Below, one piece after another: positions 11,286 to 50,833 of a stretch of DNA of 64,000 nucleotides. Position numbers and translations under genes: made by a program. The notes beneath the pieces were generated by a model. It was not told the DNA's origin. It made no database searches and saw only the letters and a program-made list of their open reading frames with translations. The DNA comes from Candidatus Norongarragalina meridionalis (GTDB lineage Archaea > Micrarchaeota > Micrarchaeia > Norongarragalinales > Norongarragalinaceae), in contig CABMDO010000019.1 in the NCBI GenBank assembly GCA_902384935.1, forward strand, positions 31,087 through 95,086, given 5' to 3'. Every line of letters starts with the position of its first letter. Position 1 is the stretch's first letter.

Positions 11286-11315
11286 CTTTTTATTCCGATA
11301 GCTCCTAGCATAGTC

Positions 11316-18415: not shown

Positions 18416-19420
18416 CTACTTCTTTTTATCCAGGAAGTCCAGCATGTCCACCATGCGGCAGGAGTAGCCCCACTCGTTGTCGTACCACGCCAGCGTCTTG
18501 CAGACGTTTCCGAGCGTGTTCGTGCAGAGACCGTCGACTGTCGCGGAATGCGGATCGCCTATGATGTCGCAGGACACTATCGGCTCCTCGGTGTACGCGA
18601 GGATGCCCTTCATCTGTCCGACGGCGCGCTTGAAGGCGTTGTTCACGTCGTCGCGGCTCGCCTCCTTCTCGAGCTCAACCGTCAAATCGTTGGCGGAACC
18701 GTCGGACACCGGCACGCGCAAGGCAATGCCGTCGAGCTTGCCCTTCAGCGCGGGTATCACTTCGCCTATGGCCTTTGCGGCGCCAGTCGTAGTGGGTATA
18801 ATCGAAAGAGCGGCTGCGCGTGCGCGCCGCAGATCCTTGTGCGTCCCGTCGAGGGTACGCTGGTCGTTCGTGTAGGCGTGAATCGTGCTCATGAAACCGC
18901 GCTTGATGCCGAAGGAATCGTTCAGAACCTTCGCTACGGGAGCGAGGCAGTTCGTCGTGCACGAAGCCATCGAAAGAATCGTGTGCTTCTTCGGGTCGTA
19001 CGCAGACTCGTTGACGCCGAGCACTAACGTTACATCCGCGCCCTTCATCGGCGCGCTGACTATCACCTTTTTCGCGCCTGCCTTGATGTGCTCCTGCGCC
19101 TTTTCGCGCTCCGTGTACTTGCCCGTGCAGTCGTGCACCGCGTCGATGTCGAGCTTCTGCCACGGCAGGCTGCCCGCCTCCTTCTCGTTGTAGAACGGGA
19201 ATTCCAAATCGCCGACGCGGAGCGCGTTGCCTTTCGCTTCCACCTTCGCGCCGAGCACTCCGTGTATGGAATCGTATTTCAGGAGATGGGCGTTCGTCTT
19301 CGCGTCGCCGCTGTCGTTGATGGCGACGAGTTCGTGCCTGTCGAAGAAGCCTTCCTTGCACAATGCGGAACGCAAAACGCAGCGCCCGATTCTGCCGAAG
19401 CCGTTTATCGCGAATCTCAC
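18416..19420 (-). CDS. gap: Glyceraldehyde-3-phosphate dehydrogenase, class I (bacterial/eukaryal type)
   Basis: MRFAINGFGRIGRCVLR; active-site SCTTNCLAP; WYDNEWGYS; 334 aa. Confidence 0.9.
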   Translation of the reverse strand: MRFAINGFGRIGRCVLRSALCKEGFFDRHELVAINDSGDAKTNAHLLKYDSIHGVLGAKVEAKGNALRVGDLEFPFYNEKEAGSLPWQKLDIDAVHDCTGKYTEREKAQEHIKAGAKKVIVSAPMKGADVTLVLGVNESAYDPKKHTILSMASCTTNCLAPVAKVLNDSFGIKRGFMSTIHAYTNDQRTLDGTHKDLRRARAAALSIIPTTTGAAKAIGEVIPALKGKLDGIALRVPVSDGSANDLTVELEKEASRDDVNNAFKRAVGQMKGILAYTEEPIVSCDIIGDPHSATVDGLCTNTLGNVCKTLAWYDNEWGYSCRMVDMLDFLDKKK

Positions 19421-25658: not shown

Positions 25659-26626
25659 AGGGGTTGGACGCTCTCAAGAACTTGCGGATTTTTCACGGAA
25701 ACGCCACGCCTGATCTGGCTAAGGCGATCGCGAAGGAATTGCATACCCAGCCCGCCGAGGCGGTCACCAAGCGGTTCGCCGACGGCGAGGTTTGGGTTGA
25801 CATCGAAGAAAGCGTGCGCGGGAAGCACGCGTTCATCGTGCAATCGACGTGCGGACCAGTTAACGACAACCTCATGGAACTCCTCGTCATAACTGACGCG
25901 CTGAAGCGCGCCACTGTTTCGCGCATAACCGCGGTGATTCCCTATTACGGCTACGGAAGGCAGGACAAGAAGGCGCATCCGCGCGAACCCATAAGCGCGC
26001 GGCTCGTAGCGAACCTCATCGAGAAAGCGGGCGCGGACGACGTGCTTTCGGTCGACCTGCACAGCGGGCAGATTCAGGGCTTCTTCCAGATTCCGGTTGA
26101 CAACCTCACGGCGCGCCCGTTGATGGTGAATCACGCGCGCAAGACGTTCAGCAACATGAAGGACGTAATCGTGGTTTCGCCCGACGCCGGAGGGGCGAAA
26201 AGGGCGCAGGAGTTCGCGAATGCGCTCGGCACCCCGCTCGCCATAATACACAAGGCCCGCCCGATGCCGAACAAGTCGCAGGTGACGCACGTTGTCGGAT
26301 ACACGAATTCCAAAACCGCGCTCCTATGCGACGACATCGTCGACACCGCGGGTTCGCTCGCGAACGCCGCCGACGCGCTCGTGGCGCAGGGCGCGAAGGA
26401 GGTTTACGCCTACTGCACGCACGCTGTGCTTTCGGACGACGCAGTCAACCGCATCCAGAAATCCAAAATCAAGAAGCTCATCGTGACGGACTCGATACCG
26501 CTCAGCCCGCAGGCGCGCGCCTGCAGGAAAATCGAAGTCGTTTCTCTCGCGCCGCTGATCGCGCAGGCGATAGAGCGCAACCAGCGCAACATATCCGTCA
26601 GTGAGCTGTTCAGGAACGGGTACTGA
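25643..26626 (+). CDS. prs: Ribose-phosphate pyrophosphokinase (PRPP synthetase)
   Basis: LRIFHGNATPDLAKAIAKEL..FADGEVWVDIEESVRGKHAFIVQST, DLHSGQIQGFF, VVSPDAGGAKRA, CDDIVDTAGS. Exact start is uncertain (GTG 25643/25655). Confidence 0.9.
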   Translation: MHGGVKGLDALKNLRIFHGNATPDLAKAIAKELHTQPAEAVTKRFADGEVWVDIEESVRGKHAFIVQSTCGPVNDNLMELLVITDALKRATVSRITAVIPYYGYGRQDKKAHPREPISARLVANLIEKAGADDVLSVDLHSGQIQGFFQIPVDNLTARPLMVNHARKTFSNMKDVIVVSPDAGGAKRAQEFANALGTPLAIIHKARPMPNKSQVTHVVGYTNSKTALLCDDIVDTAGSLANAADALVAQGAKEVYAYCTHAVLSDDAVNRIQKSKIKKLIVTDSIPLSPQARACRKIEVVSLAPLIAQAIERNQRNISVSELFRNGY

Positions 26627-27510
26627 TGCTCGGATACGCCGCCGCGCTGTTGTCCGGATTCCTCGCGAAACTTACGGACAGCCAGGTTGACGAGCAGCTC
26701 TGGTTCGGCAGGAACGCCAGCTACGTTACGGCGATTCTTTACGGAGGACTGGGCGGATTTCTGACCACGCTTTCTCCGCAGTTCGCAACTGTTTTCTGGG
26801 CTATTCTCGTCGCGGTACTAGTCACGGGAAAAATAGACTCCAAGGAACACCAACTGGCGGTGGGCGCGTTCATAGTCGCAGCATTTTTGCTCGGCACGAA
26901 AACCCCGGACGCGGCCATACTCCTTTTCCTCGCGTCCGCAGCCGCGCTTGACGAGAAACTCAACGATTTGGCGGACTACGGCGAACTGAAAAGCGGAGTC
27001 GTGAAAAAAATCGCCCGCTACCGCATCCTGCTCGACGTCGCCGCGCTCGCGATTTCCGCCATAACCCGCGACGTTTCCTACATCGCCGCGGTGCTTTCGT
27101 TCGACATCGGCTATCAGGCGGGAACGTTCGCCTCCAAGAAAATCGCGAACCCCCATCCGCCCGTCCGCGGCACGCACCTGATGCTCGACTTGCGGGAAGG
27201 CGGCGCGCGCGGACTCGATTCGGAAAAAATCGTCGAAAAATTCCTGAAGGACGTGCCGAAGGCGCTGCGCATGCGCGCCATAACGAAACCGGTGCTGAAG
27301 CGCGTCGGGACGGGCAGGGATTACGGCATAAGCGGGTTCGTCATGATCGCCGAAAGCCACATTTCCGTGCATACTTATCCGAGAAAGCGCGCCGCATTCA
27401 TAGACGCGTTCTCGTGCAGGGAGTTCGACGTCGCGGTCGTGAAGGAAATGGCGGAGCGCACGTTCGGCGGAAAGGCGGAAGCCAAAAGCGAGAAGCGCTC
27501 TATTTCCTGA
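26626..27510 (+). CDS. Fusion protein: N-terminal multi-TM domain plus C-terminal pyruvoyl-dependent AdoMet-decarboxylase-like (SpeH-type) domain
   Basis: Residues 1-~175 form 4-5 hydrophobic helices. The C-terminus GTHLMLDL...YGISGFVMIAESHISVHTYPRKRAAFIDAFSCREFD contains the SpeH self-cleavage ES|H..HT.P signature. There is no stop between the two parts. Confidence 0.7.
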   Translation: MLGYAAALLSGFLAKLTDSQVDEQLWFGRNASYVTAILYGGLGGFLTTLSPQFATVFWAILVAVLVTGKIDSKEHQLAVGAFIVAAFLLGTKTPDAAILLFLASAAALDEKLNDLADYGELKSGVVKKIARYRILLDVAALAISAITRDVSYIAAVLSFDIGYQAGTFASKKIANPHPPVRGTHLMLDLREGGARGLDSEKIVEKFLKDVPKALRMRAITKPVLKRVGTGRDYGISGFVMIAESHISVHTYPRKRAAFIDAFSCREFDVAVVKEMAERTFGGKAEAKSEKRSIS

Positions 27511-30078: not shown

Positions 30079-31463
30079 AGCGAAGCCTGGACGCATTGCT
30101 GGAGCCGAAGAGCGTGGCGGTGATAGGCGCGTCGCGGGAGCCCAGAAGCGTAGGGTACGGCGTGCTGCAGGGCTTGCTGAAGGGCTGCGTGATGCCGTCG
30201 AAATACGCGAAGCGCTTCCCTGGAAAGGTTTACGCGGTTAACCCGAACGCGAAGACCATACAAGGCGTGAAATGCCACGCAAGCGTGAAGGACATCGCGG
30301 GCGATGTTGACCTGGCGGTGATATGCGTCCCCGCGAAAATCGTCCCGCCGGTGCTGCGGGAGTGTGCCGAAAAGAGGGTGAAGGCGGCGGTCGTGGTATC
30401 CGCTGGTTTCGCCGAAGTCGGGGACGCGGAACTGCAGGAGGAACTCGCGACAATCGCGAAAAAAGGCGGGATGCGGCTCCTCGGCCCGAACTGCCTCGGC
30501 GTGATACGCCCCTCGAAATCGCTTAACGCTTCTTTCGGATTGAGCATGCCCCGCGCTGGCGGGGCGGCGTTCATCACGCAGTCCGGCGCGCTCGCGGACA
30601 GCGTCATCGACTGGGCGCTCGAGGAGATGTACCCGTTCAGCGCAATAGTGAGCCTGGGAAACCAGGCGGACGTGGACGAGGCGGATCTCGTTGAATGGTT
30701 CGCAGGCGACGGGGAAACAAAAGCGATTGCGCTTTATCTCGAGGGCGTGAAGGATGGAAAGAAGCTGATGGCGGCGGTGCGCAAGGCGGTTGCCGCCGGA
30801 AAGACGGTGCTCGTGCTGAAGGGCGGCAGGCTCAGCGGAGGCGCGAAGGCGGTTTCATCGCACACCGGCGCGCTTGCCGGCTCGTACGCGGTTTTCGAAG
30901 CCGCGATGCGCCAGAGCGGAGCCGTCGTGACATACGGCCTGGCGGACTTGCTCGGGCTCGCGCAGGCGGCGAGCGAACAGCCCAAGGCGGGCAACTCGGT
31001 GGTGGTCGTGACGAACGGCGGCGGCGCGGGCGTTCTGTGCACCGACTACTGCGAGGAGTTCGGGGTGAATCTCGTAAAAATCAGGGAGGCGACGCTGCGC
31101 AAGCTGGACGCCACGAAGCTGATGCATCCCGCGTATTCGAGACGCAACCCGCTGGACCTGATAGGGGACGCGGGCGCGAAAAGATACGAGGCGGCGCTGG
31201 ACGTCCTTCTGGCGGACGACGCGATAAAAGCGGCAATCGTAATCCAAACGCTCCAAACGATGACGGAATCGGAAGGCGATGCGCGGGCGGTGCTGCGCAT
31301 TCGGAAAAAATATCCGAAGAAGCCCGTCATCTGCGTCTTCATGGGAGGGAAGTACAGCAAGGCGGCCATGCAACTGCTCGGCGAGAACGGCGTGCCCAAC
31401 TACGACGACCCGCGGAAGGCCGCCAAGGCGATGGCGCTGCTCGTCGGCGCGCAGCGTTTTTAA
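30075..31463 (+). CDS. ADP-forming acetyl-CoA synthetase, alpha (CoA-binding/ligase) subunit
   Basis: LLEPKSVAVIGASREPRSVGYGV, NPNAKTIQGVKCHASVKDI, RLLGPNCLGV, ITQSGAL, SSHTGALAG (phospho-His loop). Confidence 0.8.
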   Translation: MKRSLDALLEPKSVAVIGASREPRSVGYGVLQGLLKGCVMPSKYAKRFPGKVYAVNPNAKTIQGVKCHASVKDIAGDVDLAVICVPAKIVPPVLRECAEKRVKAAVVVSAGFAEVGDAELQEELATIAKKGGMRLLGPNCLGVIRPSKSLNASFGLSMPRAGGAAFITQSGALADSVIDWALEEMYPFSAIVSLGNQADVDEADLVEWFAGDGETKAIALYLEGVKDGKKLMAAVRKAVAAGKTVLVLKGGRLSGGAKAVSSHTGALAGSYAVFEAAMRQSGAVVTYGLADLLGLAQAASEQPKAGNSVVVVTNGGGAGVLCTDYCEEFGVNLVKIREATLRKLDATKLMHPAYSRRNPLDLIGDAGAKRYEAALDVLLADDAIKAAIVIQTLQTMTESEGDARAVLRIRKKYPKKPVICVFMGGKYSKAAMQLLGENGVPNYDDPRKAAKAMALLVGAQRF

Positions 31464-31485: not shown

Positions 31486-32508
31486 GTGGACATCTTATCG
31501 GTGCTGCAGCAGAAGTCCAAGGCCGTAGACGCGGCGCTGCCGCTGTTCCTGCCCAAGCGCGAGGGTTCGGGCTGGCTTCGCGATTATCGCGACATGCTGT
31601 GGGACTACAACCTGCGCGGCGGGAAGCGTTTGCGTCCTGCGCTGTGCATGCTCTCGTGCGAGGCGTGGTGGGGGAAGCAGGAGCAGGCTGTTCCCACCGC
31701 AGTGGCGCTCGAACTCCTGCAGAACTTCTTCCTGATTCACGACGACATAGAGGACGAAAGCGAGCAACGACGCGGAAAACCGTGCCTGCACAGGTTGTGG
31801 GGCGTACCGTATGCGATTAACGCGGGCGACGCCACTTTCGTGAAAGTGTGGGAGACGCTGATGGCGAACCGCGGCGTTTTGGGGGACGAGAAAGCGCTTG
31901 AAATTTACGAGGAGTTCGTCGCGCTCTGCAATAAAACTACCGAGGGACAGATGCGCGAGATGTACTGGGTGCGCGAAAAGAAATGGGACATCACGGAAAA
32001 GGACTACTTCGACATGGCGGGGGAGAAGGCGGGCTATTATACTGTTGTTGCGCCCCTTAGGCTGGGCGCCATATGCGCGGGACGCAGCGGGCTCAAAAGC
32101 AACTTCGACTCCTGGGGCATGAAATGGGGAATCGCGTTCCAGATTCAGGACGACTTGCTCAACGCGGTGGGCGGGAAGAAATACGGCAAGGAAATCGGCG
32201 GGGACATCTACGAGGGAAAGCGCACGCTCCTGCTGATACACCTGATGGAACATTGCAGCTACAAGGAAAAGAAGGAAATCCTGAAAATCATGAACAAACC
32301 GAGGCAGAAAAAAACAGCCGCCGAAGTGAAGAAGGTTCTTTCGTTGATGAAGAAATGCGGAAGCGTCGAGTATGCGAGGCGAACGGCGAAAGAGCTGGCT
32401 GAGGAAGCGAAAATCGGGTTCGAAAAAAGCTTTTCGGACGCGCGGCAGGGAGCGGCTAAGGAATCGCTGCGCGCGCTCATAGATTACGTCATAGAGAGGG
32501 ATGTCTGA
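31486..32508 (+). CDS. idsA: Polyprenyl (geranylgeranyl) diphosphate synthase
   Basis: First DDxxD region FFLIHDDIEDESEQRRGKP; second FQIQDDLLN; GTG start. Confidence 0.85.
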   Translation: MDILSVLQQKSKAVDAALPLFLPKREGSGWLRDYRDMLWDYNLRGGKRLRPALCMLSCEAWWGKQEQAVPTAVALELLQNFFLIHDDIEDESEQRRGKPCLHRLWGVPYAINAGDATFVKVWETLMANRGVLGDEKALEIYEEFVALCNKTTEGQMREMYWVREKKWDITEKDYFDMAGEKAGYYTVVAPLRLGAICAGRSGLKSNFDSWGMKWGIAFQIQDDLLNAVGGKKYGKEIGGDIYEGKRTLLLIHLMEHCSYKEKKEILKIMNKPRQKKTAAEVKKVLSLMKKCGSVEYARRTAKELAEEAKIGFEKSFSDARQGAAKESLRALIDYVIERDV

Positions 32509-33332
32509 TGAAGGTTATCCGCGCCAGCAAAGCAGGGTTCTGCTTCGGCGTAAAGCGCGCCGTGAAGCTTTCCGAAGAAGCGTCCAAGAAAAAGGGGTCC
32601 GTGCATACTCTCGGCCCCGTGGTGCACAACCCGCAGGCTATCGAACGCCTGGAGCAGATGGGCGTCAAGGAGATAAACGAAATCAAGGAGGCGCGGAAGG
32701 GCATAGTCATCATACGCGCCCACGGAATTCCGCCCGAGGACTACAAGGAATTGGAGAGCAAGGGCATCGAAATCGTGGACGCGACGTGCCCCTTCGTCAA
32801 GAAGGCGCAGGACTACGCGCGAATGCTGCACGACGAGGGCTACACGATCGTCATCATCGGCGAGAAGGAGCATCCCGAGGTGCGCGGAATCAAGGGGCAC
32901 GCGAAAGAAGCGACGGTTATAGAGACGCCCGAGGAAGCCGAGAGGCTGCAGATGTGCGGCAAGATGGGCGTAGTCGTGCAAACCACTCAGGAGCAGGCGG
33001 TTGTGGGCAAAATCATCCCGATTCTTTTCAACAAAACCAAGGAGCTGCGCGTGTTCAACACGATTTGCAGCGCAACTGGCGAACGCCAAGAGGCGGTGAA
33101 GGGGTTCGCGAAAAAGGTCGACGTCATCGTCGTGGTAGGCGGCAGGAACAGCGGAAACACGCGACGGCTTGCACAGATTGCCGAGCGAATCGCGCCCACG
33201 TACCACATCGAAACCGCCAGGGAACTCAAGAAGGAATGGTTCAAGGGCGCGAAAACCGTCGGCGTCGCAGCGGGCGCGAGCACGCCCGACTTCGTAATCG
33301 ACGAAGTGGTGAAGAAGCTTGAAAGTTACTGA
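32508..33332 (+). CDS. ispH: 4-hydroxy-3-methylbut-2-enyl diphosphate reductase (IspH/LytB)
   Basis: GFCFGVKRAV, VHNPQ, ATCPFVKK, NTICSATGERQ, VVVGGRNSGNTRRL. Confidence 0.9.
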   Translation: MKVIRASKAGFCFGVKRAVKLSEEASKKKGSVHTLGPVVHNPQAIERLEQMGVKEINEIKEARKGIVIIRAHGIPPEDYKELESKGIEIVDATCPFVKKAQDYARMLHDEGYTIVIIGEKEHPEVRGIKGHAKEATVIETPEEAERLQMCGKMGVVVQTTQEQAVVGKIIPILFNKTKELRVFNTICSATGERQEAVKGFAKKVDVIVVVGGRNSGNTRRLAQIAERIAPTYHIETARELKKEWFKGAKTVGVAAGASTPDFVIDEVVKKLESY

Positions 33333-34116
33333 GCGCGCCGACGCAAAGGTGAATCTCCTTCTCGACGCAGGCGGCGTCAAGAACGGCTTCCACTCCGTAG
33401 ACATGGTTTTCCAGGAAATTTCGCTCCACGACGACGTCGCCATCGAAAAGGCGAAGGATTTTTCGGTGAAATGCGCGGGAAACATCCGCGAGAACACCGC
33501 GGAAAAGGCGGCGCGCCTGTTTTTCGAGAAAACCGAGATGCTGTGCTGCGCGAAAATCTCGATAACCAAGAGGATTCCGGTTGCCGCGGGACTTGGCGGG
33601 GGAAGCTCGGACGCCGCCGCGGTGATACGCGGGCTCGACAGGCTATATGGAACCGAACTCACGAAGGACGAAATGAAGGACATAGGCCGCGCAGTAGGCT
33701 CGGACGTCTGCTTCTTCCTCGAAGGCGGCGCATGCCTCGCCCGGGAAAGGGAGTTCAACCTGACGAAGCTCAGGCCGAAGGCGCGTTTTTACGTCGCGCT
33801 GGAGACGCCGAACGTCGCGCTGCCTGAAAAGAAAACCGCGTGGATTTATTCCAAATACGACGGGCTTGCTAAGAAGCGGCACTACGACGCGGACAGGATG
33901 GCTTACGCGGTGGAGCACGGCGACGCGAAAGACGTCGCTGCGTTGCTTGGAAACTCGCTGGAGGACGTCGTCCTGAAGGCGTTCCCCGAATGCGCCGCCG
34001 CGAAGGAACGGATGATGAAAAAGGGCGCGCTCGGCAGCCTCGTGAGCGGCGCAGGACCCACGGTGTTCGGGATATTCGACAAAAAAATCTCGGGCGCTTA
34101 CGAGGTGGTTGCATGA
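33319..34116 (+). CDS. ispE: 4-diphosphocytidyl-2-C-methyl-D-erythritol kinase (IspE)
   Basis: AKVNLLLD, GHMP motif IPVAAGLGGGSSDAAAVIRGL, SGAGPTVFG. TTG start overlaps the ispH end. Confidence 0.85.
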   Translation: MKVTERADAKVNLLLDAGGVKNGFHSVDMVFQEISLHDDVAIEKAKDFSVKCAGNIRENTAEKAARLFFEKTEMLCCAKISITKRIPVAAGLGGGSSDAAAVIRGLDRLYGTELTKDEMKDIGRAVGSDVCFFLEGGACLAREREFNLTKLRPKARFYVALETPNVALPEKKTAWIYSKYDGLAKKRHYDADRMAYAVEHGDAKDVAALLGNSLEDVVLKAFPECAAAKERMMKKGALGSLVSGAGPTVFGIFDKKISGAYEVVA

Positions 34117-34493
34117 CGCTGCCGAAGATTGAGAACACGGAAAAGGCATTCGACGCCCTGAAGAAAAGCGGGGGCGGAAGGATGCTGGTCACTAACGGAG
34201 TTGTACGCGGCGTGATGTTCGATCCGGAAGTCCGTAGAATTCTCGTTACGTTCAAGAACAAAATGGACGAGGAAAATACCTTTAAGGCGCTCGCCTTCGC
34301 CGCAAGGCGGGAAATCGGTCCGCTTGCGCTGGTCAAGAAAAGCAAAGAGTACGGGATAGAGGTTTATCCGAATGGAAACGAACCTACGGCGCTAAGGGAT
34401 CCGATAACATTCGGGGGCGAAGGCGCGGAAGCGCCGATGGCTTACCGCGAGGAAATGCTGAGACTGCTTAAACACGTTGTTTTTCCTTCGTGA
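34113..34493 (+). CDS. Hypothetical 126-aa protein, last gene of the idsA-ispH-ispE unit
   Basis: ATG 34113 overlaps the ispE stop (ATGA): MTLPKIENTEKAFDALKKSGGGRMLV... No family recognised. The Arg-rich upstream part of track ORF 33990 was rejected. Confidence 0.4.
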   Translation: MTLPKIENTEKAFDALKKSGGGRMLVTNGVVRGVMFDPEVRRILVTFKNKMDEENTFKALAFAARREIGPLALVKKSKEYGIEVYPNGNEPTALRDPITFGGEGAEAPMAYREEMLRLLKHVVFPS

Positions 34494-34956
34494 CGAGCAC
34501 CACGGCGTACGCCATCACGCCGTCTCCTTTTCCAAAAGCGGACAGCGTTTCTCCCGTAGTCGCGGTGATGCCGACTTTATCCGAAGGAATGCCCAGTATT
34601 TTCGAAAGCGACAATTGCATTTTTTCGAACGAAGGCTCTATCTTGGGTTTCGCGCACTCGATGGACACGGAAACGTTGGAAACGGAATAGCCCGCTTCCT
34701 TTACTTTCTTCAGCGCGACCTTCACGTATTCGCGGCTGTCTGTGATTCCTTTTTTGCACAGGTCGTCCGCATAAGAAGAAAGGGAACGGCCGCCTACTGA
34801 AGAGGCAAGCGCGTTGCATAGGGCGTGAAGAACCACGTCGCCGTCGGAATTCGCCTTGAAGCCGCGCTCGCCCTCGAAAACCACGCCGCCCAAGACGCAT
34901 TTTTTCCCTTCGGCAAACGCATGCGAATCGTGCCCCAAACCAACGCGGAATTCCAT
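34468..34956 (-). CDS. ispF: 2-C-methyl-D-erythritol 2,4-cyclodiphosphate synthase (IspF)
   Basis: FRVGLGHDSHAF, SDGDVVLHALCNAL, ITATTGE; 162 aa. Confidence 0.9.
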   Translation of the reverse strand: MEFRVGLGHDSHAFAEGKKCVLGGVVFEGERGFKANSDGDVVLHALCNALASSVGGRSLSSYADDLCKKGITDSREYVKVALKKVKEAGYSVSNVSVSIECAKPKIEPSFEKMQLSLSKILGIPSDKVGITATTGETLSAFGKGDGVMAYAVVLVTKEKQRV

Positions 34957-34965
34957 TCAAATCAC

Positions 34966-36252
34966 CTACAGAAGCGTTTTTACCCTCGCGTAAACCTCGC
35001 GCAGCCTGTTCTCCGCGAGTTCGCACGCCCTCGCGAGCAGCGGGTTCTGCGGCTTCAGGCGCGACTGGATGTCCGCGAAGCGCTCGTCCAAACCCATCAC
35101 CAATCCGCCCTGCCCAACGCACAAATCCGCGTAAGTAAGTATCTCCGCCGCGAGGGAAGACGGAATCAGATCCTGAGGCTCGAACCCGTACTGCGACAGG
35201 TCCGTTCCGCGGAGTTTCGCCTCCTCGAATGCTGCGTTGTGCGAAAGCACGACGCGCGCCACGCCTTCCTCGTTCTTTTCGCGGAGGAAAACCGCGGCAT
35301 CGACCGCGTGCACGCCGGCTTTTTTCAGCGGCTCGGCGTAGCCTATGTCGTGGAGCAGCGCCGCGATGCGCAGTTCCTCCACGTCGAGCAGCTCGATACG
35401 CTTGACAAGCGATGCCTGCGAATATTTTCCCTTGGAGAGGTTTTCCTTGAGTTTGAGCGCGGTTTCCGCCGCGACGCGCGTTACCTCCAAATCGTGCTTG
35501 TAACGCGTCGGGTTCTCGCCGAGATACTGCTTCAGCAGGCGCATCGCATCGTCGTACGTAAAGCGGGTTTTCGTCATCCTCCTCCGCAAAACGTCTTCCG
35601 CGAAAACGATGTCTTCGAGCGTCGTAATCTTGATGTTCTCGTAGCTTCCTTCGACGATTTTGACGGGCACGCCGATGCGCTCGACGAGCTGCACGTCGTC
35701 GGTGCCGTAGAATTTTTCCGAAATCGCCTTCTCGAACGCCTTCATCGCGACGTCGTAAACGATGCACTGGGGCGTTTGCACCGCCCACAGGGCGGCGCGC
35801 ACAGGCGTCTCCTGCACGAGCATGTCTGCGCCGACGCGCTTCACCGTCTCCTTCACGCGCGTCCCCACCACTGCCGCGCCAGTCTCCTTCGCGGCGTTTA
35901 TGCAGTCCGTGATTTCCTTCTGCGTCACGAGCGGGTTCGCGCCGTTGTGAATTGCGACGATATCGCACTTCGGGCACGCCTTCAAGCCGTTGTAAACCGA
36001 ATCCTGGCGCTCCTGTCCGCCGACTACCACGGCGCGGATTTTCTTGAATCCGAAATCCTTGGCCATCGACTGGAAGTCTGGCACGCGCTCCTCGCCGCAC
36101 ACGACGAGTATGTCCGTCACGAACGGATTGTCCTCGAACGCCTGTATCGCGTGCGCGGAAACGGGTTTTCCGAGCAACGGAAAGAGCTGCTTGCTTATGC
36201 CGCCGAGCCTCTTCGCCTTGCCCGATGCGGCGATGATTGCGACTACTTTCAT
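34966..36252 (-). CDS. ispD: 2-C-methyl-D-erythritol 4-phosphate cytidylyltransferase (IspD) fused to a C-terminal HD-domain phosphohydrolase
   Basis: MKVVAIIAASGKAKRLGGISKQ..., VAIHNGANPLV, VQTPQ, ENIKITT = IspD (~225 aa). Then ...YKHDLEVTRVAAE...IAALLHDIGY...HAVDAA...LSHN = HD domain (~200 aa). ATG 36252 overlaps the ispG stop (ATGA). The Arg-rich upstream part of track ORF (to 36744) lies inside ispG and was rejected. Confidence 0.8.
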   Translation of the reverse strand: MKVVAIIAASGKAKRLGGISKQLFPLLGKPVSAHAIQAFEDNPFVTDILVVCGEERVPDFQSMAKDFGFKKIRAVVVGGQERQDSVYNGLKACPKCDIVAIHNGANPLVTQKEITDCINAAKETGAAVVGTRVKETVKRVGADMLVQETPVRAALWAVQTPQCIVYDVAMKAFEKAISEKFYGTDDVQLVERIGVPVKIVEGSYENIKITTLEDIVFAEDVLRRRMTKTRFTYDDAMRLLKQYLGENPTRYKHDLEVTRVAAETALKLKENLSKGKYSQASLVKRIELLDVEELRIAALLHDIGYAEPLKKAGVHAVDAAVFLREKNEEGVARVVLSHNAAFEEAKLRGTDLSQYGFEPQDLIPSSLAAEILTYADLCVGQGGLVMGLDERFADIQSRLKPQNPLLARACELAENRLREVYARVKTLL

Positions 36253-37322
36253 GCCTTTCGCCTCTCCTTCAGCATAGCGTCGATTTCCTCGAACAGCGCG
36301 CCGACGATTTCGCTTTCCTTCACCTTGCGCACTACCTGCCCCTTGCGGAATATCACTCCGACTCCCCGTCCGCCGGCGACTCCGACATCCGCTTCGCGCG
36401 CCTCGCCCGGGCCGTTTACGACGCAGCCCATCACCGCGACGTGGAACGGCTCCTTGTACGTCTGCAGCTTCGCCTCCACTTCCTCGGCGATTTTTATGAG
36501 GTTGATTTCCGTGCGTCCGCACGTGGGGCACGACGTCATGATGGGGCCGCGCTCGCGCAAACCCAAGTCCTTGAGTATTTCGTATCCGACCCTGACTTCC
36601 TCCAGCGGGGACGCGGTAAGCGAAACGCGTATCGTGTCGCCGATTCCCTCCATCAGCAGGGCACCGAGCGCCATCGAGGACTTGATGCTTCCGCCGAGCG
36701 TCGTTCCTGCCTCGGTAACGCCGAGATGAAGGGGATAGTCGCACTGCTTCGCCATGAGCTTGTACGCCGCGACAGTCCTGGGAACGTCGCTGAACTTAAG
36801 CGAAACGACGATGTCGCGGAAATCCAGCGATTCGAGAATCCTGATGTGCCCGAACGCGCTTTCCACCGCCGCTTCGGGCGTCGGACGCCCGTATTTCTGC
36901 AGCAGCGCAGGTTCGAGCGAACCCGCGTTGACGCCGATGCGCATCGGGATGCCCGCATTTTTCGCCGCTTTGACTACGGCGCGCGTCTTTTCCTCGCCTC
37001 CGATGTTTCCGGGGTTTATGCGGAGCTTTGAAACGCCGTTGTCGATGCATTTCAACGCGAGTTTGTAATCGAAATGGATGTCGGAGCAGACGGGGATGGG
37101 CGAATCCCTCGCAATAATCTTGACCGCGTCCGCGGCTTTTTCGTCCGGAATCGCGACGCGAACGAGTTCGCATCCCCTTTCGGCGAGCGCTTCGATCTGC
37201 TCGAGCGTTTTCTTTGCGTCGCGAGTGTCGGTATTGCACATGCTCTGCACTACGACCGGCGCGCCGCCGCCGATTTTTACGGAACCCGCCTTCACCTGCC
37301 GGGATTTACGCCTTGGAAACAT
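36249..37322 (-). CDS. ispG: 4-hydroxy-3-methylbut-2-en-1-yl diphosphate synthase (IspG/GcpE)
   Basis: VKIGGGAPVVVQSMCNT, LRINPGNIG, [4Fe-4S] ligand region SCPTCGRT...VMGCVVNGPGE. ATG 37322 chosen (17-nt overlap with dxr). Confidence 0.9.
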   Translation of the reverse strand: MFPRRKSRQVKAGSVKIGGGAPVVVQSMCNTDTRDAKKTLEQIEALAERGCELVRVAIPDEKAADAVKIIARDSPIPVCSDIHFDYKLALKCIDNGVSKLRINPGNIGGEEKTRAVVKAAKNAGIPMRIGVNAGSLEPALLQKYGRPTPEAAVESAFGHIRILESLDFRDIVVSLKFSDVPRTVAAYKLMAKQCDYPLHLGVTEAGTTLGGSIKSSMALGALLMEGIGDTIRVSLTASPLEEVRVGYEILKDLGLRERGPIMTSCPTCGRTEINLIKIAEEVEAKLQTYKEPFHVAVMGCVVNGPGEAREADVGVAGGRGVGVIFRKGQVVRKVKESEIVGALFEEIDAMLKERRKA

Positions 37323-38457
37323 ATCCTTCAGCCTCTTTTCTCGCCCATGCATCTGCGGCGAGTATCTCTTCGAGCGACGGCGAGGAAACTGTGCGGTGCG
37401 CCGCAACCACTTTCGAAACCGTCTTCGGAATGCCCATAAAACCTATTTTTTTGTTCAGGAACGCGAACACCGCTATTTCGTTGGCGGCGTTCATAACCGC
37501 GGGAATCGTGCCGCCTTTTTCTCCCGCGTCGAGCGCCATGCGGAAGCACGGGAAGCGCGCCTCGTCGATTTTTTTGAACGAAAGCGTTCCTACGTCCGCC
37601 AGATTCAACCTTTTCAGGGAAGGGTTCGGCAGCCTCTCGGGATAGGAAAGCGCGTACTGTATCGGAAGCCGCATATCGGGGAGCCCGAGCTGCGCCATCA
37701 CGGACGTGTCTTCGAATTCCACGAGCGAATGAATCACGCTCTGCGGGTGAATCACCGCCTCGATTTTTTCGTAGGGAACGCCGTAGAGCCAGTGCGCCTC
37801 GATTACTTCCAAACCCTTGTTCATCAGCGTCGCGGAATCAATCGTGATTTTCCCGCCCATCGCCCAGTTCGGATGCTTCAGCGCCTGCTCGGGCGTCGCC
37901 TTTTCCATCTGCGCAAGGGTCCAGTCGCGGAACGAGCCTCCGGACGCGGTTATGATGATGCGCGCTATGCTTTTCCAGTTCTCGCCGTGGAGGCACTGGA
38001 AAATCGCGGAGTGCTCGCTGTCTATGGGCAGGAGCGTGACGCCTTCCTTCTTGACAAGAGGCATTACTACGCTTCCGCCCGCAACGAGCGTTTCCTTGTT
38101 CGCGAGAGCAATATTCTTTTTCGCTTTGATTGCCGCCACGGTTGGTTTCAAGCCAGCTGCGCCGACTATGGCGGTTACCACGGTATCGCATCCGTCCATG
38201 GTTGCCAGCGCGTTCAGCCCGTCTTCGCCGTGAAGGACTTCCACGCCCGGAAGTTTCGGCCCGAGTTTTTTCGCGTCATCCTCCTTTGAAACGCAAACCA
38301 TCTTCGGCTTGAACTTTTTCGCTTGCGCCTCGATTAATTCCACGTTCCCGCCTGCGCTGAGCCCTACGACTTTGAACTTTTCGGGAAAGCGGCCTACTAC
38401 GTCGAGCGTCTGGGTGCCGATGGAACCCGTAGAGCCGAGAATGCAGATGCGCTTCAT
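37306..38457 (-). CDS. dxr: 1-deoxy-D-xylulose 5-phosphate reductoisomerase (Dxr/IspC)
   Basis: ICILGSTGSIGTQTLDV, LANKETLV, PIDSEHSAIFQCL, NAANE. ATG 38457 overlaps the dxs stop (ATGA); the alternative start is 38466. Confidence 0.9.
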   Translation of the reverse strand: MKRICILGSTGSIGTQTLDVVGRFPEKFKVVGLSAGGNVELIEAQAKKFKPKMVCVSKEDDAKKLGPKLPGVEVLHGEDGLNALATMDGCDTVVTAIVGAAGLKPTVAAIKAKKNIALANKETLVAGGSVVMPLVKKEGVTLLPIDSEHSAIFQCLHGENWKSIARIIITASGGSFRDWTLAQMEKATPEQALKHPNWAMGGKITIDSATLMNKGLEVIEAHWLYGVPYEKIEAVIHPQSVIHSLVEFEDTSVMAQLGLPDMRLPIQYALSYPERLPNPSLKRLNLADVGTLSFKKIDEARFPCFRMALDAGEKGGTIPAVMNAANEIAVFAFLNKKIGFMGIPKTVSKVVAAHRTVSSPSLEEILAADAWARKEAEGYVSKA

Positions 38458-40322
38458 TTTCCGCACAACCTTTCGATTGCCTTGAGGACTCCTTCCTTGT
38501 TCAAGCCGTACTGCGCGAGGAGGATTTCCGGCGCGCCGTGTTCGATGAACTCGTCGGGATAGCCGAGGCAGTGCACCTTGGCTTCCACTCCCCTGGCGGT
38601 GAGCATCTCTAGAACCTCGCTCCCGAACCCGCCCGCAAGCACGCCGTCCTCAACCGTGAGCACGCGCCCCGTCTTTTTGGCGTATTCGATGATGAGCGTT
38701 TCGTCGAGCGGCTTCAGATACTGCGGGTCTATTACCGCGACGGAATGCTTCGACTCCTTCGCGGCTTCGAGCGCGACGTTCGCCATCACGCCGGCTCCTA
38801 TGATTACGACGTCCTTGCCGTCCTTCATCAGATGCGCCTTGCCAATCGGAAGCTCATTGAATTCCTTCTTCAGCGGCAACCCCGGGCCGGAACCGCGCGG
38901 GTAGCGCACCGCCACCGGGCCGTTGTGTTTCACGGCGGTGTAAAGCATGTCCTGCAACTGCGGCTCGTTCGATGCGGACATTATCACGAGATTGGGTACC
39001 GAGCGTAAGAACGAGATGTCGAACACGCCGTGGTGCGTCGGCCCGTCGTCGCCCACTATTCCCGCGCGATCAATCGCGAACGTCACGGGAAGGTTCTGCA
39101 GGCAGACGTCGTGTATCACCTGGTCGTAGGCGCGCTGGAGGAACGACGAATAAACCGCAAAAACAGGATGCAATCCGTTCGCAGCCATTCCCGCGGCGAA
39201 CGTTACGGCATGTTGTTCCGCGATTCCCACGTCGAAGAAGTTCTCGGGGAACGCTTCCGCCAACTTTATGGTTCCGGTTCCCGAAGGCATCGCGGCGGTT
39301 ATGCCCACTATCCTCTTGTTCTGCCTGACGAGTTCGACGAGGGTTTCACCGAACACGTCCTGGAACGCGGGTTTGCCTTTGGGTTTCGAGGGTTTGCCGC
39401 TTTCGGGGTCGAACGGCGCGCATCCGTGGAAGCGCGGCGCGTCGTCCTCGGCGTATTCGCAGCCCTTGCCTTTCTGCGTTATGACGTGCACCAGCACCGG
39501 GCCGCGCATCTTCTTCACCGATTCGAACGTTTCTATAAGTTTCGAAATGTCGTGCCCGTCTATGGGCCCGATGTACGTAAAGCCCAGTTCCTCGAAAACC
39601 AATCCGCTCGTGAGTACCGCTAGCGCTGCTTCCCTCAGCCTGCGGACGGTGTCGACGAGCTCCTTCTGCTCTGGCGGAATCTGGGAAAGCAGGTAATAGA
39701 TATCCTGCCGAACGCGGTTGTAGACGGGCCAGTTCGGCACCTTTTTGGCCAGGCGGTTGGTGTAGAAGGACATCGCGCCCACGTTGGGCGAGATGGACAT
39801 GAAGTTGTCGTTCAGGACTACCACCAAATCCGTGCCGCGGTGCCCTGCCTGGTTCAACGCTTCGAAGGACATGCCGCCGGTCATGGCGCCGTCGCCGATT
39901 ACCGCGAGAACCTTGTAACTCTCGCCTTTGGTATCGCGCGCCTGCGCTATGCCCAGAGCCGCCGAGATTGACGTGGAGGAATGCCCCGTACCGAAAACGT
40001 CGTGCTCGCTTTCGCACATTTTCGGGAACCCGCTGATGCCCTTGTACTGCCGTATGGTGCCGAAGCGCTCCTTCCTGCCGGTAAGCAGCTTGTGCACGTA
40101 GCACTGGTGCCCCACGTCCCAGACGAATTTATCGCGGGGCGAGTTGAAGACGTAGTGCATGGCTATGGTGAGCTCGACCACGCCGAGATTCGGCGCAAGA
40201 TGCCCTCCGGTAACCGACACCGTCTTGATAATCGTCTCCCGTATCTCCTCGGCGAGTTTGGGCAGCTCCGCAATGGAAAGCCGCTTCAAATCGCTGGGTG
40301 AGTCTATGTTTTCCAGAAGCAT
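38454..40322 (-). CDS. dxs: 1-deoxy-D-xylulose 5-phosphate synthase (Dxs)
   Basis: TGGHLAPNLGVVELTIAMHYVF, VWDVGHQCYVHKLLTGR, ThDP motif IGDGAMTGGMSFEALN, IAEQHAVTFAAG; 622 aa. Confidence 0.9.
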   Translation of the reverse strand: MLLENIDSPSDLKRLSIAELPKLAEEIRETIIKTVSVTGGHLAPNLGVVELTIAMHYVFNSPRDKFVWDVGHQCYVHKLLTGRKERFGTIRQYKGISGFPKMCESEHDVFGTGHSSTSISAALGIAQARDTKGESYKVLAVIGDGAMTGGMSFEALNQAGHRGTDLVVVLNDNFMSISPNVGAMSFYTNRLAKKVPNWPVYNRVRQDIYYLLSQIPPEQKELVDTVRRLREAALAVLTSGLVFEELGFTYIGPIDGHDISKLIETFESVKKMRGPVLVHVITQKGKGCEYAEDDAPRFHGCAPFDPESGKPSKPKGKPAFQDVFGETLVELVRQNKRIVGITAAMPSGTGTIKLAEAFPENFFDVGIAEQHAVTFAAGMAANGLHPVFAVYSSFLQRAYDQVIHDVCLQNLPVTFAIDRAGIVGDDGPTHHGVFDISFLRSVPNLVIMSASNEPQLQDMLYTAVKHNGPVAVRYPRGSGPGLPLKKEFNELPIGKAHLMKDGKDVVIIGAGVMANVALEAAKESKHSVAVIDPQYLKPLDETLIIEYAKKTGRVLTVEDGVLAGGFGSEVLEMLTARGVEAKVHCLGYPDEFIEHGAPEILLAQYGLNKEGVLKAIERLCGK

Positions 40323-40345: not shown

Positions 40346-40354
40346 CATTAAAAC
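40346..40354 (-). promoter_or_regulatory. TATA-box-like element for the dxs operon (leaderless spacing)
   Basis: Minus-strand TTTTAATG lies ~25-32 nt upstream of the dxs ATG (40322). Confidence 0.35.
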
Positions 40355-40434: not shown

Positions 40435-40851
40435 ATGGAAAGCTGGCTCCTCTACGCGCTCGGCGCGATGCTTCTTCTTGCTGGCGGAAATTTCGCTTTC
40501 AAGATACTGGCGAAGGACTTCAATTTCGCGAATTCGCTCGAAAACAAGACAGTGCCCATCGCGCTCATAGCGCTTGCGTGCGGGGCGGCGATTTACTTCT
40601 TCGTGTTTCCGGGCGCCTCTCCCGCGATGCTCACGTGGCTCGCCGCCGCGGTGCTGTGCTCTTTGTTCGGGTATTTCCTGGTGATAGCGGCGTTGAACAC
40701 CGGAAAGGTGGCGCTCGTAGGCGCGGTGCTGAGCCTGAGCACGATAGTGCTGGCGCTATTGTCGATTAAATTCCTGGGCGACTCGTTCACGCCGATGCAG
40801 GCGGTTGCCATGCTGCTGGCGGTGTGCAGCATAGCTATACTCGCGTTCTAG
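40435..40851 (+). CDS. Small EamA/DMT-superfamily-like membrane transporter (single domain)
   Basis: MESWLLYALGAMLLLAGGNFAFKILAK... with 4-5 TM helices. The upstream part of track ORF 40159 overlaps dxs and was rejected. Confidence 0.55.
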   Translation: MESWLLYALGAMLLLAGGNFAFKILAKDFNFANSLENKTVPIALIALACGAAIYFFVFPGASPAMLTWLAAAVLCSLFGYFLVIAALNTGKVALVGAVLSLSTIVLALLSIKFLGDSFTPMQAVAMLLAVCSIAILAF

Positions 40852-47760: not shown

Positions 47761-48072
47761 TCAGTAAAGCGTCAGCGTGAAGGAACGGGGGTTCGACGGA
47801 TCGACTTTTATGCCCAGGGTTTCCTTGTCCTTCATACCCAGCGCCCTGAACAACGCCATCGGCAGGCGGACGGCGAAGGAATTCCCCTGCTGCGTAACCT
47901 TTGCCGTCAATTTCTGGCGGTCAAGCTTTCTGAGAGCGAGCAGGCGCTCAGCTGCGTCTGCATCCAAATACTCCTCGCCGCATGAACATCGCCAGCCTGG
48001 AACCGTGGTTCCTTCTATGCGAAGGGATGCACGCTTCGCCAGCTTCCCGCACTTTACGCATTTCATCGTCAT
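47761..48072 (-). CDS. Putative antitoxin: YgiT/MqsA-like zinc ribbon fused to SpoVT/AbrB-like domain
   Basis: MKCVKCGKLAKRASLRIEGTTVPGWRCSCGEEYL (CxxC...CxC), then SFAVRLPMALFRALGMKDKETLGIKV (AbrB-type swapped hairpin). The start overlaps the stop of the upstream DUF4258-like gene by 4 nt (48069-48072). Confidence 0.55.
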   Translation of the reverse strand: MTMKCVKCGKLAKRASLRIEGTTVPGWRCSCGEEYLDADAAERLLALRKLDRQKLTAKVTQQGNSFAVRLPMALFRALGMKDKETLGIKVDPSNPRSFTLTLY

Positions 48073-48293
48073 TTTCCCACCTTGCTTACGTGAATAACCG
48101 CCCAGACGTGCCGCTTTTCATGCAAATCCCACGACTCCGCAACAACCACTTTCAAGCCGCGGAGGCAACGTTCCACGACGCCGCGCATCCTGCGCCTGCC
48201 CGAATCCCGTCCGCAATTGAGGCATTCGAGGACGTCTTCGACGGACAATTCGTATTCCGCGATTTCGGAGTACGCCGCCTTCGTGAAGCGCAT
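48069..48293 (-). CDS. DUF4258-like putative toxin
   Basis: MRFTKAAYSEIAEYELSVEDVLECL...LKVVVAESWD...VWAVIHV resembles DUF4258 (RFTKHA..R.IS.eeV.evL ... vVV ... ViTv). Track ORF extends to 48365; internal ATG 48293 is preferred. Confidence 0.5.
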   Translation of the reverse strand: MRFTKAAYSEIAEYELSVEDVLECLNCGRDSGRRRMRGVVERCLRGLKVVVAESWDLHEKRHVWAVIHVSKVGK

Positions 48294-48421
48294 GTCCTCG
48301 CGCCGAAAGGTTTCTACCCTACGTATATACGTATAGTTTATACTTTTAAGGGTTCCGCTTGCCATACGCGGAGCATGCGAGGGCGGAATTTAAAGCAGCC
48401 GCGGCGCGTCGGTTCCAGTGT

Positions 48422-50212: not shown

Positions 50213-50482
50213 TCAGCGCGTCTTGGTGACGGTTATTCCGGTCCGCCGCTCGAACTCCTTGGCAGAAAGCAGCTTTTCCTTGCCGAGTGTGACGTCGCGC
50301 TCGATGCGCTTCGCCTCGCGCAGGTCCTCTTCGTCCTCGCGTTGCTCGAGAAGCTTGTATTTGTTGTCAAGTTCTAGCAGGCCCAGCATGATTGCGTCTG
50401 TCTTCGTCTTTGCTATGCCCGCTTTCACCGCGCCCGCCATTATCTGCTCCGGGATTCCGACCAGTTTAACGTTCATGTTCAT
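50213..50482 (-). CDS. Putative ribbon-helix-helix-like antitoxin/small regulator
   Basis: VKLVGIPEQIMAGAVKAGIAKTKTDAIMLGLLEL (strand-helix-helix), then an acidic linker and ...LSAKEFERRTGI. Family not firmly recognised. Confidence 0.4.
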   Translation of the reverse strand: MNMNVKLVGIPEQIMAGAVKAGIAKTKTDAIMLGLLELDNKYKLLEQREDEEDLREAKRIERDVTLGKEKLLSAKEFERRTGITVTKTR

Positions 50483-50575
50483 AGTATCACAATAATTAGC
50501 ATATAAACCGCTATATAAAGTATAGTGGTAGGCACGCCAGCCCTGTTTTAAAGGATTCTCGGCACTTCGTCCTTC

Positions 50576-50833
50576 GTGTCGGACTACGAAGCGGTATTCA
50601 CAAAAAGCTTTGCGGAATCACTGCGAAAGCTCGACAAGTACGCCAAGGAAGTCGCGGAAAAGCGAATCGCGAAAATAATCGAGAAACCGCGGCTTTCCAA
50701 GAACCTCTGCGGCGATGCGTTCTATTTCGGCGAGAGATTCCTGCAATACAGGGTAGTTTTCAAGCTTGAGGGGAAAACCATAACGTTTCTGCGGCTGGGA
50801 AAGCGCGACAACGTCTATTCGCAATCTTTTTAA
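50576..50833 (+). CDS. RelE/ParE-superfamily toxin-like protein
   Basis: YEAVFTKSFAESLRKLDKYAKEVAEKRIAKIIEKP...LQYRVVFKLEGKTITFLRLGKRDNVY follows the RelE/ParE pattern (Y.i.f...a.k.l.kl...........i..l...P...........YRi.y.i.....i.il.ig.R..vY). GTG start. Confidence 0.6.
   Translation: MSDYEAVFTKSFAESLRKLDKYAKEVAEKRIAKIIEKPRLSKNLCGDAFYFGERFLQYRVVFKLEGKTITFLRLGKRDNVYSQSF

Follow-up and report, generated by a model that had tools for sequence, protein, structure and literature searches.

A chromosomal cluster of MEP/DOXP isoprenoid pathway genes in an archaeon of the Micrarchaeota, probably of the order Norongarragalinales

In a 64-kb stretch of contig CABMDO010000019.1 (GenBank assembly GCA_902384935.1; hereafter the window, meaning the whole stretch of DNA that was analyzed), we found a complete set of genes for the 2-C-methyl-D-erythritol 4-phosphate (MEP) pathway, also named after 1-deoxy-D-xylulose 5-phosphate (DOXP or DXP), at 31486-40322. 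Judging from gene content and sequence comparisons, we consider it very probable that this locus is a chromosomal MEP/DOXP cluster of a Micrarchaeota archaeon (DPANN), probably of the order Norongarragalinales, that it derives from an old bacterial transfer, and that it feeds the synthesis of geranylgeranyl diphosphate (GGPP). The pathway would convert pyruvate and glyceraldehyde-3-phosphate into DXP, then MEP, 4-diphosphocytidyl-2-C-methyl-D-erythritol (CDP-ME), its 2-phosphate (CDP-MEP), 2-C-methyl-D-erythritol 2,4-cyclodiphosphate (MEcPP), and 4-hydroxy-3-methylbut-2-enyl diphosphate (HMBPP), and finally into isopentenyl diphosphate (IPP) and dimethylallyl diphosphate (DMAPP). These two products would then be condensed by a short-chain prenyltransferase that is probably a GGPP synthase. 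Expression would proceed from archaeal-type promoters, and the output would go to products made from GGPP, archaeal ether lipids among them; the genes, brought by an old bacteria-to-DPANN transfer, would now be native in behavior. Use of the MEP or the mevalonate (MVA) route is one element of the classical lipid divide that separates bacteria from archaea. A complete archaeal MEP pathway bears on the rigidity of this divide and on the biosynthetic independence of reduced-genome DPANN archaea, a point that is already in print for Woesearchaeota and Micrarchaeota. To these examples, the window adds a clean contiguous one with its operon layout, its coupling with a GGPP synthase-type gene, and its strong purifying selection.

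The block contains nine open reading frames (ORFs) in two convergent units, and all seven MEP genes lie inside 8.8 kb. Families were called with Pfam and NCBIfam, using the score relative to the NCBIfam equivalog cut-off as the test, and gene junctions were read straight from the sequence. The minus-strand unit has the order dxs-dxr-ispG-ispD(HD)-ispF. It consists of dxs (38454-40322; TIGR00204, 821 bits against a cut-off of 466), with the Pfam domains DXP_synthase_N, Transket_pyr, and Transketolase_C; dxr, which encodes a DXP reductoisomerase of 383 aa starting at an ATG with MKRIC (37306-38457; NF009114, 588 against 461); ispG (gcpE), encoding an HMBPP synthase of 357 aa (36249-37322; NF001540, 509 against 345); a gene for a 428-aa fusion of IspD with an HD domain (34966-36252; IspD TIGR00453, 198 against 181); and ispF, encoding an MEcPP synthase of 162 aa (34468-34956; TIGR00151, 165 against 116). 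The plus-strand unit has the order prenyl synthase-ispH-ispE-orf126. It is headed by a gene with a GTG start for a short-chain trans-prenyl diphosphate synthase of 340 aa (31486-32508; Pfam polyprenyl_synt), which is followed by ispH (lytB), encoding an HMBPP reductase of 274 aa (32508-33332; TIGR00216, 306 against 188); ispE, encoding a CDP-ME kinase of 265 aa (33319-34116; TIGR00154, 177 against 139); and orf126 (34113-34493), an ORF of 126 codons that was assigned to no family. Each of the seven MEP enzymes passed an NCBIfam equivalog cut-off, with Pfam in agreement, and chance is not an issue because there are nine strong family matches.

Most of these genes are tightly coupled. ATGA overlaps occur at three junctions (dxs/dxr, ispG/ispD, and ispE/orf126), dxr and ispG overlap by 17 nt, ispH and ispE overlap by 14 nt with ispE starting on TTG, and the prenyl synthase gene and ispH share 1 nt in TGATG. 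A gap of 9 nt separates ispD-HD from ispF; IspF is encoded by a separate gene, and the fusion is not a bifunctional IspDF. Where the two units meet, the 3' ends of orf126 and ispF overlap by 26 nt. The dxr start that is coupled to dxs is at 38457, compared with 38466 in the longest-ORF list, and the starts of ispG and ispD-HD were fixed at 37322 and 36252, respectively. TATA-box-like heptamers precede both units: TTTTAAT (40347-40353, minus strand) is 25-31 nt upstream of the dxs ATG, and TTTTTAA (31457-31463, plus strand) is 23-29 nt upstream of the prenyl synthase GTG and overlaps the stop codon of the upstream gene for ADP-forming acetyl-CoA synthetase (ACS). Given their positions 23-31 nt before the two units, we infer that these heptamers are candidate archaeal promoters and that the transcripts may be leaderless.

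Catalytic and cofactor motifs are intact. Dxs has the thiamine diphosphate motif GDG..N at residues 143-180, and Dxr has the NADPH motif GSTGSIG at residues 8-14 as well as DSEH and NKGLEVIE. IspG contains CPTC (265-268) and GC..N..GE (299-307), with the ligand residues aligned to those of Aquifex 3NOY, its nearest solved structure (E = 2.7e-110). In IspH, the cluster cysteines Cys12, Cys94, and Cys187 all align to those of Aquifex 3DNF, again the nearest solved structure (E = 1.2e-80). The GHMP loop PVAAGLGGGS is present in IspE, and IspF has GLGHDSH and DVVLH with the Zn/Mg ligands intact. The ratio of nonsynonymous to synonymous substitution rates (dN/dS), computed against the related contig L087 at a dS of about 0.7-1.1, ranged from 0.04 to 0.16 across eight genes (Dxs 0.10, Dxr 0.09, IspG 0.08, IspF 0.16, IspH 0.04, and IspE 0.10, among others); for comparison, the value for the neighboring DHH gene is 0.11. 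A complete MEP set that is under purifying selection and looks functional is thus well supported. An earlier note on this DNA had described the two convergent units, the coupled junctions, and the intact motifs, and these descriptions hold: all nine ORFs are where it had placed them, the families are confirmed, and every junction is present, with the small corrections of start coordinates given above.

The sequences that surround the block are archaeal. A family scan of the window flanks identified the DNA primase small subunit PriS, a Gins51-type GINS protein, and ribosomal protein L44e, together with a DHH phosphoesterase, a beta-CASP RNase, and both subunits of ADP-forming ACS; an L7Ae-family protein is also coded there. 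Elongation factor 2 (EF-2; 53309-55495, 728 aa, without an intein) has archaeal matches only, and those named to phylum belong to Candidatus Micrarchaeota. The best 120 organism-named matches are all Micrarchaeota or unclassified archaea. The top match (96% identity) is from contig JAZDNL010000037.1 (L085) of the NCBI metagenome-assembled genome (MAG) GCA_043799765.1, a Candidatus Micrarchaeota, and the synteny of this contig with the window extends from the DHH gene to that for ribosomal protein L10. EF-2 identity is 73% to CG1_02_60_51 and 71% to CG1_02_55_22, both of which are assigned to GTDB o__Norongarragalinales in a supplement table of a study on Micrarchaeota (Natl Sci Rev 2025; PMC12892359). 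Identity to Burarchaeum and Fermentimicrarchaeum is only about 63%. From this comparison, the host is a Micrarchaeota archaeon, most probably of the order Norongarragalinales. Among the EF-2 homologs of other Micrarchaeota, several (P0128, P0137, P0145, and others) are about 1250 aa long and contain intein/LAGLIDADG domains.

An exact-sequence look-up of the window Dxs returned no record. Six contigs from five other assemblies were found to carry all or part of the cluster at 78-95% amino-acid identity, and where flanks could be compared, they hold the same archaeal genes. These assemblies are ENA ERZ27293400 (contig L081), JGI 3300025150/Ga0210057 (L082 and L086), 3300004210/Ga0066639 (L083), Ga0066637 (L087), and Ga0210017 (L088). 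In L081, L082, and L083, dxs-dxr-ispG-ispD-HD-ispF is convergent with ispE, and Dxs identity is 87-92% in these three contigs and L087. The DHH-side flank is kept in L081 and L082, and in L081 it continues via PriS, a GINS-like gene, and L44e to S27e, whereas L083 stops at the EamA gene beside dxs. L087 (Ga0066637_10000313, 28.8 kb) and L088 (Ga0210017_1002899) have the full two-unit arrangement including the prenyl synthase gene at 80-95% identity, and L086 carries the prenyl synthase-ispH end. Composition tells the same story: codon-usage scores of the nine block genes are 0.07-0.28 compared with 0.20 +/- 0.12 for the window, and the tetranucleotide correlation of the block with the remaining window sequence is 0.984, a value not exceeded by any other 8.8-kb segment. 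By these measures, the MEP genes behave as native, functional genes.

The nearest relatives of the MEP enzymes provide information on their origin. The nearest Dxs sequences among the matches listed from GTDB species-representative genomes come from bacteria, namely Thermodesulfobacteriales, Eubacteriales, Neomoorella, Desulfobulbia, and Parcubacteria, with 46-56% identity. Archaeal relatives were not among these matches and probably escaped the scan in part because of its exact 8-mer patterns. A more distant archaeal locus was found on L084, a 360-kb contig that encodes Hjc, PTH2, S3Ae, and S15, and whose housekeeping proteins are only 41-49% identical to those of the window. This contig groups dxs, ispE, dxr-ispG-ispD-ispF, an ispH-NUDIX fusion, and a prenyl synthase gene together, and its dxr-ispG-ispD-ispF core is collinear with that of the window. 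Its MEP enzymes are 53-67% identical to those of the window, except for IspE (31%), and for Dxs, Dxr, IspG, IspF, IspH, and IspD it is nearer than any bacterial locus. In an IspD tree, the window and L084 fall inside a clade of 36 sequences that includes four of the five archaeal-labeled sequences (Woesearchaeota, Nanoarchaeota, Diapherotrites, and 'archaeon') and no bacterial-labeled one. This neighbor-joining tree carries no support values and its leaves are mostly unlabeled, so that its fit to the published old transfer from bacteria to DPANN archaea, possibly linked to the candidate phyla radiation (CPR; PMC6107057), is suggestive only. An acquisition that is not recent is supported because the cluster is common to close relatives, at the dS given above, and because the core is collinear in L084.

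For the prenyl synthase, the match to PF00348 (polyprenyl_synt) has an E-value of 4.5e-62, and the nearest structures are GGPP synthases, namely those of Thermus thermophilus (1WMW, E = 7e-68), Pyrococcus horikoshii (1WY0), and Geoglobus (5JFQ). Both the first aspartate-rich motif (FARM, DDIED) and the second (SARM, DDLLN) are present. The residue at position -5 before the first motif is Phe, and an aromatic residue at this position is as in type-I GGPP synthases. The predicted product is thus likely C20, as expected of a GGPP synthase, with C15 as a possible alternative. The gene adjoins ispH in L086-L088 as well.

These comparisons bear on several further claims of the earlier note. Its placement of the genes on an archaeal chromosome agrees with the PriS, GINS, L44e, and L7Ae genes in the flanks and with the EF-2 matches to Micrarchaeota, and its observation of the same GC content inside and outside the block is matched by codon and tetranucleotide usage, which are indistinguishable. 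The acquisition that it judged not to be recent is likewise upheld by the ameliorated composition, by the relatives that share the cluster, and by the collinear L084 core, and the linkage of a prenyltransferase to the MEP genes is kept in relatives. Its label of GGPP synthase stands in part: the polyprenyl_synt fold and the nearest structures agree with it, but the scores for GGPP synthase-type NCBIfam families do not reach their cut-offs.

Several points weigh against the interpretation as a GGPP-feeding MEP cluster of Norongarragalinales. The best NCBIfam matches of the prenyl synthase have scores below equivalog cut-offs (IdsA, 231 against 468; GGPP_syn, 189 against 500), and it has a second Phe at position -4; Phe-Phe at -5/-4 can favor shorter (C15) products in other enzymes. 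Among the window ORFs scanned, we found no gene for geranylgeranylglyceryl phosphate synthase (GGGPS), digeranylgeranylglyceryl phosphate synthase (DGGGPS), glycerol-1-phosphate dehydrogenase (G1PDH), or CarS. Because no other archaeal lipid gene is present in this set, the link to lipids is indirect, drawn from background biochemistry and from PMC12892359, and we infer that MEP products feed archaeal ether lipids. The placement at the order level has a single marker, EF-2, and the IspD tree has the limits mentioned above.

Alternative explanations differ in how well they fit these data. In favor of an assembly chimera, or of contaminating bacterial DNA attached to archaeal flanks, the nearest Dxs matches listed from GTDB species representatives are all bacterial, at no more than 56% identity. 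We rejected this explanation as extremely improbable, given that six contigs of five other assemblies have all or part of the same genes and, where flanks could be compared, the same archaeal ones, that the block cannot be distinguished from the remaining window by codon or tetranucleotide usage, and that the plus-strand operon joins the GGPP synthase-type gene, ispH, and ispE via overlapping stop and start codons. For the view that the MEP genes are decaying, non-functional relics of an old transfer, we found nothing in favor; pseudogenization was rejected based on intact frames and motifs, equivalog-level scores, and low dN/dS throughout, and the probability that remains for it is negligible.

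As the earlier note had suggested, the MEP pathway may have replaced the MVA pathway in this lineage, and it would then be the sole source of IPP and DMAPP. The strong constraint on the MEP genes and the lack of any MVA gene among the window ORFs scanned are in line with such a replacement, and Woesearchaeota genomes have been reported to have only the MEP pathway (PMC8421398). The window is only 64 kb of the genome, and a complete MVA pathway in addition to a complete MEP pathway was reported for Norongarragalinales and Micrarchaeales (PMC12892359), which is the group that EF-2 points to, so we consider a replacement unlikely and, for the order, unsupported. Alternatively, a functional pathway may mainly serve purposes other than archaeal ether lipids, providing non-membrane isoprenoids (polyprenol sugar carriers, quinones, or the prenylation of tRNA or proteins) or DXP for cofactor synthesis. 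This possibility would agree with the missing GGGPS, DGGGPS, and G1PDH genes in the window ORFs scanned, with the Phe-Phe pair of the prenyl synthase, and with an MVA pathway that may already supply lipid precursors (PMC12892359). It is quite unlikely in our assessment: the nearest solved homologs of the prenyl synthase are GGPP synthases, which make C20 products; every major Micrarchaeota lineage was reported to have GGGPS, DGGGPS, and CDP-archaeol synthase (PMC12892359); and the IPP and DMAPP pools are common to every downstream use. The feeding of GGPP synthesis, with ether lipids among the probable end products, is the interpretation that we retain.

The presence of a complete MEP pathway in archaea, which the earlier note had set against the mevalonate-type routes known for them, has been published for exactly this group. 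MEP enzymes were found in a few DPANN archaea, and those of CPR and DPANN were reported to group together (Hoshino and Gaucher, 2018; PMC6107057). In Woesearchaeota, the pathway was described by Castelle and Banfield (2018), as cited in PMC8204110; co-located MEP genes were then reported for a monophyletic clade of 52 genomes (Castelle et al., 2021; PMC8204110), and the pathway was confirmed with a note on IspDF fusions (Huang et al., 2021; PMC8421398). In Micrarchaeota, complete MEP pathways were reported for the orders Norongarragalinales, Zaosheniarchaeales, and Micrarchaeales, with most of the MEP genes gained by horizontal gene transfer (Natl Sci Rev 2025; PMC12892359). Closely related and already described archaeal genomes thus carry the same pathway, which removes the novelty of the pathway as such. 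The Micrarchaeota of that study are from the same phylum and probably the same order as the window, have the same seven-enzyme pathway, and led to the same conclusion of horizontal acquisition, and genes for GGPP and archaeal lipids are present in those lineages. The available parts of the study cover presence/absence and the reconstruction of gains and losses; in these parts, we came across no description of how the operons are laid out, of a fusion of IspD with HD, or of an operon that joins the prenyl synthase gene with ispH and ispE.

Comparisons with other MEP clusters show both similarities and differences. The Woesearchaeota clusters also belong to DPANN archaea and consist of co-located bacterial MEP genes near genes for prenyl transfer, and Woesearchaeota IspD groups with that of the window in the neighbor-joining tree. 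They represent a different phylum and mostly have an IspDF fusion (PMC8421398), as exemplified by P0019 (388 aa, with IspD and YgbB domains), whereas the window has IspD-HD and a separate IspF. Their neighboring gene encodes a UbiA prenyltransferase, compared with a GGPP synthase-type enzyme in the window. In Parcubacteria (CPR), two contigs (L010, 3424-11872; L012, 667-11875) have all seven MEP genes and uppS in one block, with identities to the window of 62-64% for IspG, 51-52% for Dxs, and 51-56% for IspF. The gene order (ispH-dxr-ispDF-ispE-ispG-uppS-dxs) is unlike that of the window, IspD and IspF are fused, and the linked prenyl gene encodes the cis-prenyltransferase UppS rather than a trans-prenyl synthase. 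The flanks of L010 encode YceG, EngA, LytR, YbeY, and signal peptidase I; these are typical bacterial genes, and the idea that L010 and L012 are mislabeled DPANN sequences was rejected. It is plausible that clustered CPR operons of this kind are relatives or donors of the DPANN clusters. The bacterial ispA-dxs operon, with its FPP synthase gene upstream of dxs, similarly links a trans-prenyl diphosphate synthase to MEP genes, and many of the loci L001-L070 have a polyprenyl synthase gene directly upstream of dxs. Identity between these IspA-type enzymes and the window prenyl synthase is only 27-33%, and the window gene stands at the head of the ispH-ispE unit, not of the dxs unit.

The IspD-HD fusion is a new but minor feature of this locus. 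IspD occupies approximately residues 1-230 and HD approximately residues 231-428, with the Pfam HD domain (PF01966) matched at residues 251-377 (E = 1.5e-9); the C-terminal half is encoded at 34966-35650. At least five assemblies have the fusion in intact form, and its two halves are equally constrained (dN/dS 0.06-0.07 each). We scanned the HD half with HMMER against 1.84 billion cluster-representative proteins and considered the best 150 matches. The single match below 1e-30 is P0002, the representative of this lineage's own cluster, and the next one has an E-value of 4.5e-19. Other than P0002, none of these best 150 matches has an IspD-sized N-terminal extension; the others listed are either fusions or stand-alone proteins with a length of about 190 residues. 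In ten that were checked by Pfam, IspD was not found (0/10), and the HD domain was either alone or accompanied by GntR, HAD, peptide deformylase, or STAS domains. A word-indexed search that covered 5.8 billion proteins found the IspD-HD architecture only in P0001 and P0002 (88-92% identity, same lineage), and all other IspD matches were stand-alone or IspDF; the same search with the HD domain returned P0002 alone. A full-text literature search for IspD, HD domain, and fusion did not find this fusion.

The HD domain has the properties of a metal-dependent phosphohydrolase of the HD superfamily. In the 200-residue query (IspD-HD residues 229-428), the metal residues H25, H73, D74, H87, D90, H110, and D148 are invariant or nearly so among 44 homologs, and the domain has the H...HD...D residues and an all-helical fold in an AlphaFold2 (AF2) model with a mean confidence (pLDDT) of 97.9. 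A Foldseek search with this model gave generic HD hydrolases (3CCG and 2PQ7) as the best matches, which are weak (TM-score 0.39-0.48), and a sequence search of the PDB with the HD domain returned no match. Scores for TIGR00295, a hypothetical equivalog of HD proteins, are 33.7-35.8 bits against a cut-off of 172, outside the range of members. Both halves of the fusion also weakly match the DVU_1551 family NTP transferase (NF045665), in which a nucleotidyltransferase is followed by an HD-like C-terminal region: residues 5-130 align to profile positions 2-124, and the HD region aligns to 201-290. The score of 54.6 compares with a cut-off of 315, and the N-terminal half of the fusion is an IspD equivalog rather than MobA-like, so that this family is a loose precedent for the general nucleotidyltransferase-HD layout. 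The nearest stand-alone HD relatives (L089 and L091-L093) are convergent with and overlap a NUDIX hydrolase gene, which looks like a recurrent HD-NUDIX pair, inside integrative elements of actinobacterial look with WhiB, RepSA, FtsK/SpoIIIE, and integrase genes. No link to isoprenoid genes was seen in these genomic contexts, which therefore provide no functional clue for the fusion.

That IspD-HD is a new bifunctional MEP enzyme whose HD domain acts on a pathway-linked phosphate or nucleotide has, in our view, only a small chance of being correct. In such a case, the HD domain may remove pyrophosphate or recycle CMP/CDP around the CTP-consuming IspD step and the CMP-releasing IspF step, or alternatively, it may hydrolyze CDP-ME, CDP-MEP, or MEcPP as a regulatory valve. 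A role in nucleotide/pyrophosphate turnover at the CTP-dependent step is a guess. The fusion could be a modest lead for enzymologists who study the regulation of the MEP pathway. On L084, the gene at 11201-12445 (minus strand) encodes a 414-aa protein in which IspH is fused to a NUDIX domain, which may represent an IspH-IDI-type or a Nudix hydrolase fusion. This is a second lineage-specific fusion of an MEP enzyme in DPANN-like archaea.

A second new but minor feature is orf126, which sits in a strain-specific insertion of 369 bp that separates ispE from ispF. The insertion is missing from L081-L083, L087, and L088, in which ispE and ispF abut. Searches found no Pfam or NCBIfam family, no detectable relatives, and no viral relatives of orf126. 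An AF2 model built from its single sequence has poor confidence (pLDDT 49), and its codon score of 0.07 is low, yet inside the window range. Possible interpretations are a small gene restricted to this strain and an insertion that has no function.

Other genes in the window include one for an EamA-family membrane protein of about 138 aa (40435-40851, plus strand), which is divergent from dxs and is conserved there in L081-L083; a role as a transporter co-regulated with the MEP cluster is conceivable. A glyceraldehyde-3-phosphate dehydrogenase gene (18416-19420, minus strand) matches Pfam Gp_dh_N and Gp_dh_C. We take this enzyme to be of class I, the bacterial/eukaryotic type rather than the usual archaeal one, and it is possible that it represents a further bacterial-type gene in the same archaeon. 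The gene for a TIR-domain protein (1634-2479) has a codon score of -0.43, compared with the window mean of 0.20, and a GC content at third codon positions of 0.35; it is probably a defense-type gene that was acquired recently. At 11166-11285, Rfam calls a tRNA of 120 nt that was not called by ARAGORN, which is why this tRNA probably contains an intron. It is located 55 nt downstream of tRNA-Ala(CGC) and adds to the evidence for an archaeal host. A 294-aa protein (26626-27510) has an AdoMet decarboxylase domain confined to its C-terminal third (residues 184-284), preceded by a hydrophobic N-terminal extension without a family match. A MazE-like pair of small ORFs is present at 47761-48365. A ParE-like toxin ORF (50576-50833) is beside a divergent small ORF (pair at 50213-50833) where the GC content dips to 49% at 50-52 kb, and this pair is kept in the related MAG contig L085.

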